Source: Escherichia coli
Lineage (GTDB): Bacteria > Pseudomonadota > Gammaproteobacteria > Enterobacterales > Enterobacteriaceae
DNA length: 1,837 bases
Reading direction: 5' to 3' (one strand)
NCBI RefSeq assembly: GCF_003334355.1
Contig: NZ_QOWP01000079.1
Both the position numbers and the translations under genes were made by a program. The notes beneath the pieces are model-generated. The model was not told the origin of the DNA and ran no database searches. It saw only the letters and a program-made list of their open reading frames with translations. Shown piece by piece: positions 1,124-1,522 of the stretch; within the stretch, counting starts at the first letter, position 1; each line of letters starts with the position of its first letter.

Positions 1124-1522
1124 TTAACACTTGCCTTTAACATTGCCGACAAATGAGCCTGTAAATGAGCCTATATCAGATCGACTAATTGTTCGTGTAT
1201 GGATCACTTTTCCGTCATTTGAGATTGCCCATGTGACAAGCGTCAGTTGACCATCTCGATAGCTTCTTCCCATCATGGCATTCGGAGATAGCGGGTAATA
1301 ATCAATACCTCCACCTATACCATCTTTTGCCAAGATAAGATCCGCCTTCTCTTTACTTATTACCAAATGAAAGGTATCTGGTATAGATGATAACTTATAG
1401 TTATACCCATCTGAACTTGAGGCTTCTTGTCCTTTCAGATCACCAATAATCCAGCATTCAGCGTTCGCTCCAAAAGAAGCAAATAATAAACCGGAGACAA
1501 CCAATCGCTTCAATTGATTCAC
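1124..1522 (-). CDS. Hypothetical Sec-exported small protein (132-aa precursor, ~111-aa mature); start assigned to GTG at 1522..1520
   Basis: Stop TAA at 1126..1124 on the minus strand. GTG at 1522..1520 is preceded by GGGAGG with a 6-nt spacer, and translation from it begins MNQLKRLVVSGLLFASFGANA|ECWII, a canonical signal peptide. Alternative in-frame ATG starts at 1564..1562 and 1561..1559 have weak SDs. The six-frame ORF extends to 1837 only because the frame stays open through the IS end. Confidence 0.7.
   Translation of the reverse strand: MNQLKRLVVSGLLFASFGANAECWIIGDLKGQEASSSDGYNYKLSSIPDTFHLVISKEKADLILAKDGIGGGIDYYPLSPNAMMGRSYRDGQLTLVTWAISNDGKVIHTRTISRSDIGSFTGSFVGNVKGKC
1460..1522 (-). 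other. Predicted Sec signal peptide (21 aa) with AXA cleavage motif (ANA|EC)
   Basis: Positively charged n-region (MNQLKR), hydrophobic h-region (LVVSGLLFASFG), c-region ANA, then an acidic residue. There is no lipobox, since the Cys is at +2 after a Glu, so a lipoprotein is unlikely. Confidence 0.6.

Follow-up and report, generated by a model that had tools for sequence, protein, structure and literature searches.

A two-copy 12-nt direct repeat in a Hex/Sf6 gp38-family gene of Escherichia coli is probably a recurrent, one-way deletion hot spot

The DNA analysed here, which we call the window, is a 1,837-nt stretch of Escherichia coli contig NZ_QOWP01000079.1 (assembly GCF_003334355.1) that begins and ends within IS3-family sequence (IS1203/IS629-like). 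One end of such an element, comprising the inverted repeat and the start of orfA, occupies positions 1–78 on the minus strand, and the other end of an element of this kind lies in the same orientation at 1761–1837 (minus strand). The 1685 bp between the IS ends match a segment of E. coli 510016 and an IMG/VR contig at 100% identity, and the IS-flanked arrangement was present in no complete E. coli genome searched. Positions 79–1064 on the plus strand hold the 3' part (the last ~325 codons) of a gene for a P22 gp16-type injection, or DNA-transfer, protein, as indicated by a match to phrog_770 and by the PGAP name "injection protein". The full-length protein has 701 aa, the left IS removes the 5' end of the gene, and PF26808 is found in related loci. 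On the minus strand, positions 1124–1522 encode a 132-aa protein with a GTG start that we assigned to the Hex/Sf6 gp38 family (phrog_2651) by profile match and alignment, and it is near the 3' end of this small gene that the repeat described below is located.

Upstream of the small gene, positions 1523–1760 (minus strand) form a module that is conserved before unrelated cargo genes in ~340 other E. coli genomes. The ~240-bp region through the GTG (window 1519–1760; compared with L002 7007–7621 and L003 3648–4043) is ~97% conserved, and elsewhere the module precedes 131-aa and 204-aa proteins with multiple transmembrane (TM) segments, the 204-aa one being weakly SieA-like (phrog_7745, E = 4.4e-4). 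The upstream region has the look of an expression slot that stays constant while the cassettes placed in it are exchanged. The host element, as seen in locus L001 and loci L018–L039, encodes an Icd-like protein, a TOPRIM/DUF927 primase, homologues of the gp7, gp20 and gp16 ejection proteins, AlpA and PerC, and it is integrated at at least two chromosomal sites. We found no further virion genes within the 6–8 kb flanks seen, and the element has the appearance of a satellite-type or degraded one in which ejection-protein genes alone have been retained. Near its PerC-family regulator gene there are iteron- or operator-like tandem arrays of the 9-nt sequence TGAACCAAC, with additional copies at 21-nt spacing (L001 12237–12272; L003 6477; L009 4213–4300; L010–L014).

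PGAP mostly calls the small gene from ATG codons at 1564 or 1561, 13–14 codons upstream of the GTG, which gives proteins of 146 or 145 aa. We prefer the GTG on sequence grounds, because the family alignment begins there and some annotations use it (WP_250908545.1), and because the sequence shared with unrelated cargo genes in the ~340 other genomes stops exactly at that codon. A Shine-Dalgarno-like sequence, AAGGGAGGG, can be read 5 nt upstream of the GTG (1528–1536, minus strand). The first residues read as a predicted Sec signal peptide, MNQLKRLVVSGLLFASFGANA (1460–1522, minus strand), with K5 and R6, a hydrophobic core and A-N-A, and with cleavage predicted before the E-C-W that follows. 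A hydrophobic N-terminus followed by A-x-A/S and x-C-W is conserved across the family alignment, and residues 3–18 are modelled as a helix.

An exhaustive HMMER search recovered ~35 proteins of 103–148 aa that share 25–40% identity with the window protein over their full length. The family motifs are a Cys-Trp just after the signal peptide, E-T-W, for which the window protein has V-T-W, and a C-terminal F-V-G-x-V-x-G-x-C; C23, G31 and W98 are nearly invariant. The C-terminal Cys was aligned in all 28 sequences tallied for Trp-to-Cys spacing and was missing or substituted in four others. The match to phrog_2651, a family of unknown function, extends over profile positions 1–116 of 117 (E = 1.3e-22), and searches of Pfam (with the single sequence and with all 35 members), NCBIfam and PADLOC returned nothing significant. 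AlphaFold without an alignment gave a pLDDT of 38.7, and we used only the alignment-based AF2 model (pLDDT 92), which places residues 118–131 in the last strand. Beyond its signal peptide, the window protein is predicted from this model to be a soluble beta barrel with no transmembrane segments. Five larger proteins in the representative library (P0023, of 2099 aa, and P0040, P0041, P0048 and P0050) contain 4–12 repeated stretches that resemble parts of the small protein; in P0023, 12 stretches match residues 46–105.

A tblastn search against phages placed homologues directly downstream of a cI-type repressor gene in 434, Sf6 (gene 38), HK446, HK633 and Sf101, whereas in Salmonella phage Emek the homologue is convergent with an injection-protein gene, as in the window. 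The window protein is 31% identical to 434 Hex over 123 residues (BLASTP E = 3e-21), and it shares with Hex and Sf6 gp38 its size, a signal-peptide-like N-terminus and the C-W, E-T-W and F-V-G-x-V-x-G-x-C motifs. Unlike the window gene, the genes for Hex and Sf6 gp38 lie downstream of the repressor gene rather than beside ejection genes, and their products lack the GSF-GSF repeat. In P22, the slot adjoining gene 16 is held by sieA, which encodes an inner-membrane superinfection-exclusion protein (PMC10883804). The window gene occupies the same genomic slot and is likely also a lysogen-expressed accessory gene, but its product, as a predicted soluble barrel, differs from SieA in having no TM segments beyond the signal peptide and no match to phrog_7745.

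The 434 hex gene is annotated as encoding a "repressor protection protein". Hex takes its name from the heterologous exclusion of P22, and one of its fragments inhibits the RecA-stimulated cleavage of repressor in vitro; both activities are known from experiments on 434 Hex only (PMC3564112). The same paper assigns a cytoplasmic, RecA-related role to Hex and never mentions export (PMC3564112). The "stable fragment" sHex (E43–N103 of a 158-aa ORF; L005 2438–2914) starts exactly at the predicted signal-peptidase site (...ANS/ECW). Export of Hex-family proteins is suggested by the conserved signal peptide, the beta-barrel model and the presence of a conserved cysteine at each end of the mature chain; the two cysteines may form a disulfide. 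An exported barrel encoded in superinfection-exclusion slots would sit awkwardly with a role confined to the cytoplasm, as proposed for 434 Hex.

The repeat consists of two tandem 12-nt units at 1149–1172 that are identical over 10 nt. Direct reading of the window gives acAAATGAGCCT at 1149–1160 and gtAAATGAGCCT at 1161–1172; on the minus strand, the units read GGCTCATTTACA and GGCTCATTTGTC and encode GSFT-GSFV. The repeat finder and a pattern search both located the exact 10-nt copies of AAATGAGCCT on the plus strand at 1151–1160 and 1163–1172, and the coordinates and translation of the 12-bp tandem repeat given in an earlier note on this DNA were correct. Read in frame on the minus strand, the sequence ATA GGC TCA TTT ACA GGC TCA TTT GTC encodes I-GSFT-GSFV, residues 117–125 of the 132-aa ORF, so that GSFT-GSFV spans residues 118–125, where the last strand starts; the ORF stops at 1124. 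TRF, run at score 30, missed the 1149–1172 repeat and returned a single hit, a 13-nt period pair at 1124–1147. That second, degenerate pair (minus strand, GGCAATGTTAAA and GGCAAGTGTTAA) encodes GNVK-GKC*. Together, the two pairs form four GGC-led 12-nt units, which correspond to a (G-x-hydrophobic-x) pattern in the last beta strand. The even positions of this strand read G-F-G-F-G-V-G-C, and GGC encodes all four glycines at period 4; the 12-nt periodicity is thus partly structural.

As a pattern, the repeat is unremarkable, because related real DNA is richer in such pairs than shuffled sequence. Among 5000 dinucleotide shuffles of the window, 227 (4.5%) contained an exact run of at least 10 nt with some period between 4 and 30, and 11 (0.2%) contained one with period 12; the 10-mer itself is present twice in the window against 0.19 expected. 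Across 144 kb of partly redundant related loci, on the other hand, we counted 30 distinct such repeats, four of them at period 12. Given GSF..GSF, identical codons would be expected ~2.6% of the time from local codon usage, and they were seen in 3 of 32 tripeptide repeats. We rejected a dispersed binding site, as the 10-mer is absent from the rest of the window and from 16 loci. No terminator or promoter pattern was found at the repeat, and a tRNA search found none. An origin of the repeat as a transposon footprint or target-site duplication was likewise rejected, since the units differ at 3 bases; IS1414, the only IS seen at the repeat, duplicates 8 bp, which also counts against such an origin.

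The earlier note had proposed that copy number be compared among strains and that slipped-strand mispairing could expand or contract the repeat. We searched 5,426 complete E. coli genomes with the 107-bp 3' end of the gene at an identity of at least 99%. The query matched 127 records, of which 126 cover its full length and the remaining one carries an IS1414 insertion, and all 126 full-length records have two copies. When the one-copy sequence was used as the query, 126/126 records showed a 12-nt gap relative to it, and thus the one-copy allele was found in 0/126 complete-genome records. A gapped pattern that allowed one to three copies matched two IMG/VR contigs and seven metagenome contigs, all nine of which have two copies. 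Among the 15 cluster members listed, the proteins end in GSFTGSFVGNVKGKC save for contig-end truncations and two exceptions, P0007, an IS1414 fusion protein, and P0019, the product of a scrambled allele (locus L017).

This picture of no length variation across 126 complete-genome records, nine contigs and the 15 cluster members listed was overturned when we looked up the predicted slippage products by exact sequence in a collection of 15 billion proteins. The one-copy protein (...DIGSFVGNVKGKC, ...SRSDIGSFVGNVKGKC) was present under two gene calls, one of 141 aa (P0064) and one of 128 aa (P0065). No three-copy product was in the same collection, nor were any of eight further control variants. 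These controls comprised a deletion retaining GSFT, the order GSFT-GSFV-GSFV, a four-copy form, and forms that had gained or lost the adjacent GNVK unit. At the DNA level, AGGCTCATTTGTC replaces the window's AGGCTCATTTACAGGCTCATTTGTC in twelve loci from twelve samples, with exactly 12 nt lost, and both alleles are intact ORFs. GCA_012034525.1, GCA_014187575.1 and SRR7693689 are examples of one-copy assemblies. The 141-aa one-copy form accounts for 32 index blocks vs. 5738 for the matching 145-aa two-copy form, or ~0.5%. Not all homologues therefore have two copies, and the proposed slipped-strand length variants are borne out for contraction but not for expansion, the three- and four-copy products being absent. 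The one-copy allele is known only from draft or read-derived assemblies. Typical assembly k-mers exceed 10 nt, and we rejected assembly collapse as its source since 12 independent assemblies agree and the 10-nt repeat is shorter than such k-mers. As a caution for surveys of this kind, direct look-up of the predicted product revealed a variant that had escaped notice in complete genomes, metagenome scans and cluster listings alike.

Two other kinds of change were seen at the same site. In NZ_OW968288.1 (L004 2680–4010), IS1414 has inserted inside the second unit, at the equivalent of window positions 1161–1168, with an 8-bp target duplication (GTAAATGA) and a resulting 174-aa fusion ORF; the ends of IS1414 (GAGCCTGT...ACAGGCTC) are similar to the repeat unit TGAGCCTGT. 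In L017, a draft contig of 1.5 kb (positions 499–519; GCA_001894145.1, MOKJ01000310.1), nine substitutions, mostly to A, and a 1-nt insertion are clustered at the equivalent of 1147–1165, producing a premature stop and a protein that ends in ...DIGSDTET*. The contig differs from the window at one site elsewhere, and the cluster could reflect either a genuine patch mutation or an error of assembly.

The distribution of the one-copy allele was examined in an alignment of a 1.65-kb region from 12 one-copy and 19 two-copy loci. One-copy alleles occur on four flanking haplotypes, three of which have a two-copy twin with 0 differences over ~1.65 kb. Thus, one-copy loci L019 and L026 match two-copy loci L030 and L031 without a difference, L020 and L029 match L036, and L018, L023–L025 and L027 match L038; for L021 and L028, the nearest two-copy locus, L035, differs at 6 positions. 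The two main haplotype groups differ at positions 401, 518, 714, 1071 and 1373. The last two of these lie on either side of the repeat, within 80–200 nt of it, and each state of each site occurs with both alleles. The one-copy carriers are integrated in the chromosome either at ligB-yicG or at paoCD, and the cargo beside them differs. Across the loci, the small gene shows 0–1 SNP in 399 nt while the adjacent injection-protein gene differs by 3–8%, which indicates that the elements are mosaic and suggests that the small gene is a recently spread cassette. The simplest account of these alignments is that at least two, and perhaps four, independent 12-nt deletions have taken place.

The direction of change can be judged from two features. 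The difference between the units (ACA vs. GTC) is identical on every haplotype, and the spacing from W98 to C132 is 34 residues in the two-copy protein, within the range of 33–36 seen in 28 homologues, compared with 30 in the one-copy form. The two-unit state thus has the length typical of the family, and we infer that it is ancestral because the ACA/GTC difference is common to all haplotypes and the one-copy length falls outside the family range.

Taken together, we consider it likely that the repeat is a site of recurrent, one-way contraction between short direct repeats, a deletion hot spot rather than a phase-variation switch, with two copies as the ancestral state. The two 12-nt units encode part of the final beta hairpin or strand of what is predicted to be a small, exported beta barrel of the Hex/Sf6 gp38 family; the two-unit allele is overwhelmingly the common one and would be ancestral. 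If the two 10-nt direct repeats (A GGC TCA TTT) misalign, precisely one unit would be removed. The textbook route for a loss of this kind is replication slippage, which is expected to be infrequent with only two copies of a 12-nt unit. The product would be an in-frame protein four residues shorter (ending in the one-copy sequence ...DIGSFVGNVKGKC), which may or may not still work. The deletion would have arisen more than once in nature, with its product persisting at about the frequency given above, and the change would be effectively one-way, because a single copy leaves nothing to misalign.

A single deletion could also have produced the observed distribution, if the one-copy allele had then moved to other haplotypes and sites by homologous recombination between related elements, in which case there would be no recurrent hot spot. 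The mosaic elements, with a near-invariant small gene beside divergent injection-protein genes, would be suited to such exchange, and L027 has the same haplotype as L018 yet carries different neighbouring cargo. Recombination would, however, have had to act several times through conversion tracts shorter than ~300 nt to place both alleles with both states of sites 1071 and 1373, and three of the one-copy haplotypes have two-copy twins at 0 differences. In addition, the product is exactly the one that the 10-nt repeats predict, and the variants that they do not predict are absent. We therefore give a single origin a minor but appreciable chance.

It is very improbable that the repeat is an adaptive, reversible contingency locus whose copy number tunes or switches the activity of the protein against superinfecting phages. 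The gene does lie in a slot used for superinfection-exclusion genes, and the length variant does appear to recur, but the repeat has just two copies, the unit keeps the frame and so offers no on/off frameshift, the one-copy allele has no repeat from which to re-expand, alleles with three or four copies were not found, and the variant is rare (~0.5%).

We give equally little credence to the converse history, in which a single unit came first and tandem duplication produced the two-copy allele. The duplicated GSF motif occurs in none of the remote homologues (25–40% identity), as this history would have it, but a fresh duplication would give identical units, and these differ at 3 adjacent bases on all haplotypes. 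The Trp-to-Cys lengths place the two-copy protein inside and the one-copy protein outside the family range, and the one-copy alleles are nested within two-copy haplotypes.

That the repeat is a mere by-product of beta-strand (G-x-hydrophobic-x) periodicity and coincident codons, with no mutational consequence, is hardly credible, for although the family consensus C-terminus is F-V-G-x-V-x-G-x-C, GGC is used for all four period-4 glycines, the 126 complete-genome records are invariant and such repeats are common in real DNA, precise loss of one unit in at least 12 independent assemblies contradicts a lack of consequence. A structural origin of the 12-nt periodicity may nevertheless be compatible with one-unit deletions.

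Recurrent one-way contraction, the reading that we favour, has a counterpart in the classical hot spots of lacI, where deletions between short direct repeats reportedly arise by slipped mispairing (Farabaugh 1978, Albertini 1982). As at those hot spots, two closely spaced direct repeats are present here, in this case exact 10-nt copies 12 nt apart, and the product retains one repeat and loses exactly one period. Independent recurrence of the one-unit loss is probable here, given its four haplotypes, three of them with identical two-copy twins, and its two chromosomal sites, although short-tract recombination could also have contributed. Unlike the lacI case, the evidence at the present locus comes from natural polymorphism only. 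Simple-sequence contingency loci underlie phase variation in Haemophilus, Neisseria and Campylobacter. The present locus resembles them in having a tandem repeat within a gene whose copy number (two or one) varies between isolates. It differs from them in that there is no long tract, with only two copies and no three- or four-copy alleles, and no expression switch, since the unit is a multiple of 3 and the frame is kept; the change is rare, proceeds by contraction only and is effectively irreversible.

A more speculative extension, which we think has only a slight chance of being correct, is that the recurrent loss of four residues trims the last hairpin of a periplasmic Hex-family exclusion protein and thereby shifts which P22-like phages are blocked, as a selected, "one-shot" change of specificity. 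We keep this possibility because the allele seems to recur, is maintained in several lineages and leaves the frame intact. If it were true, the repeat would be a built-in and selected feature of the gene and not mutational noise.

As ordinary mutational biology, the locus would offer a clean natural case in which a direct repeat of two copies recurrently loses one, within a gene that otherwise hardly varies across thousands of E. coli assemblies. The two alleles, which encode proteins of 132 and 128 aa, also form a natural pair that could be used to probe the terminal hairpin of a Hex-family protein.
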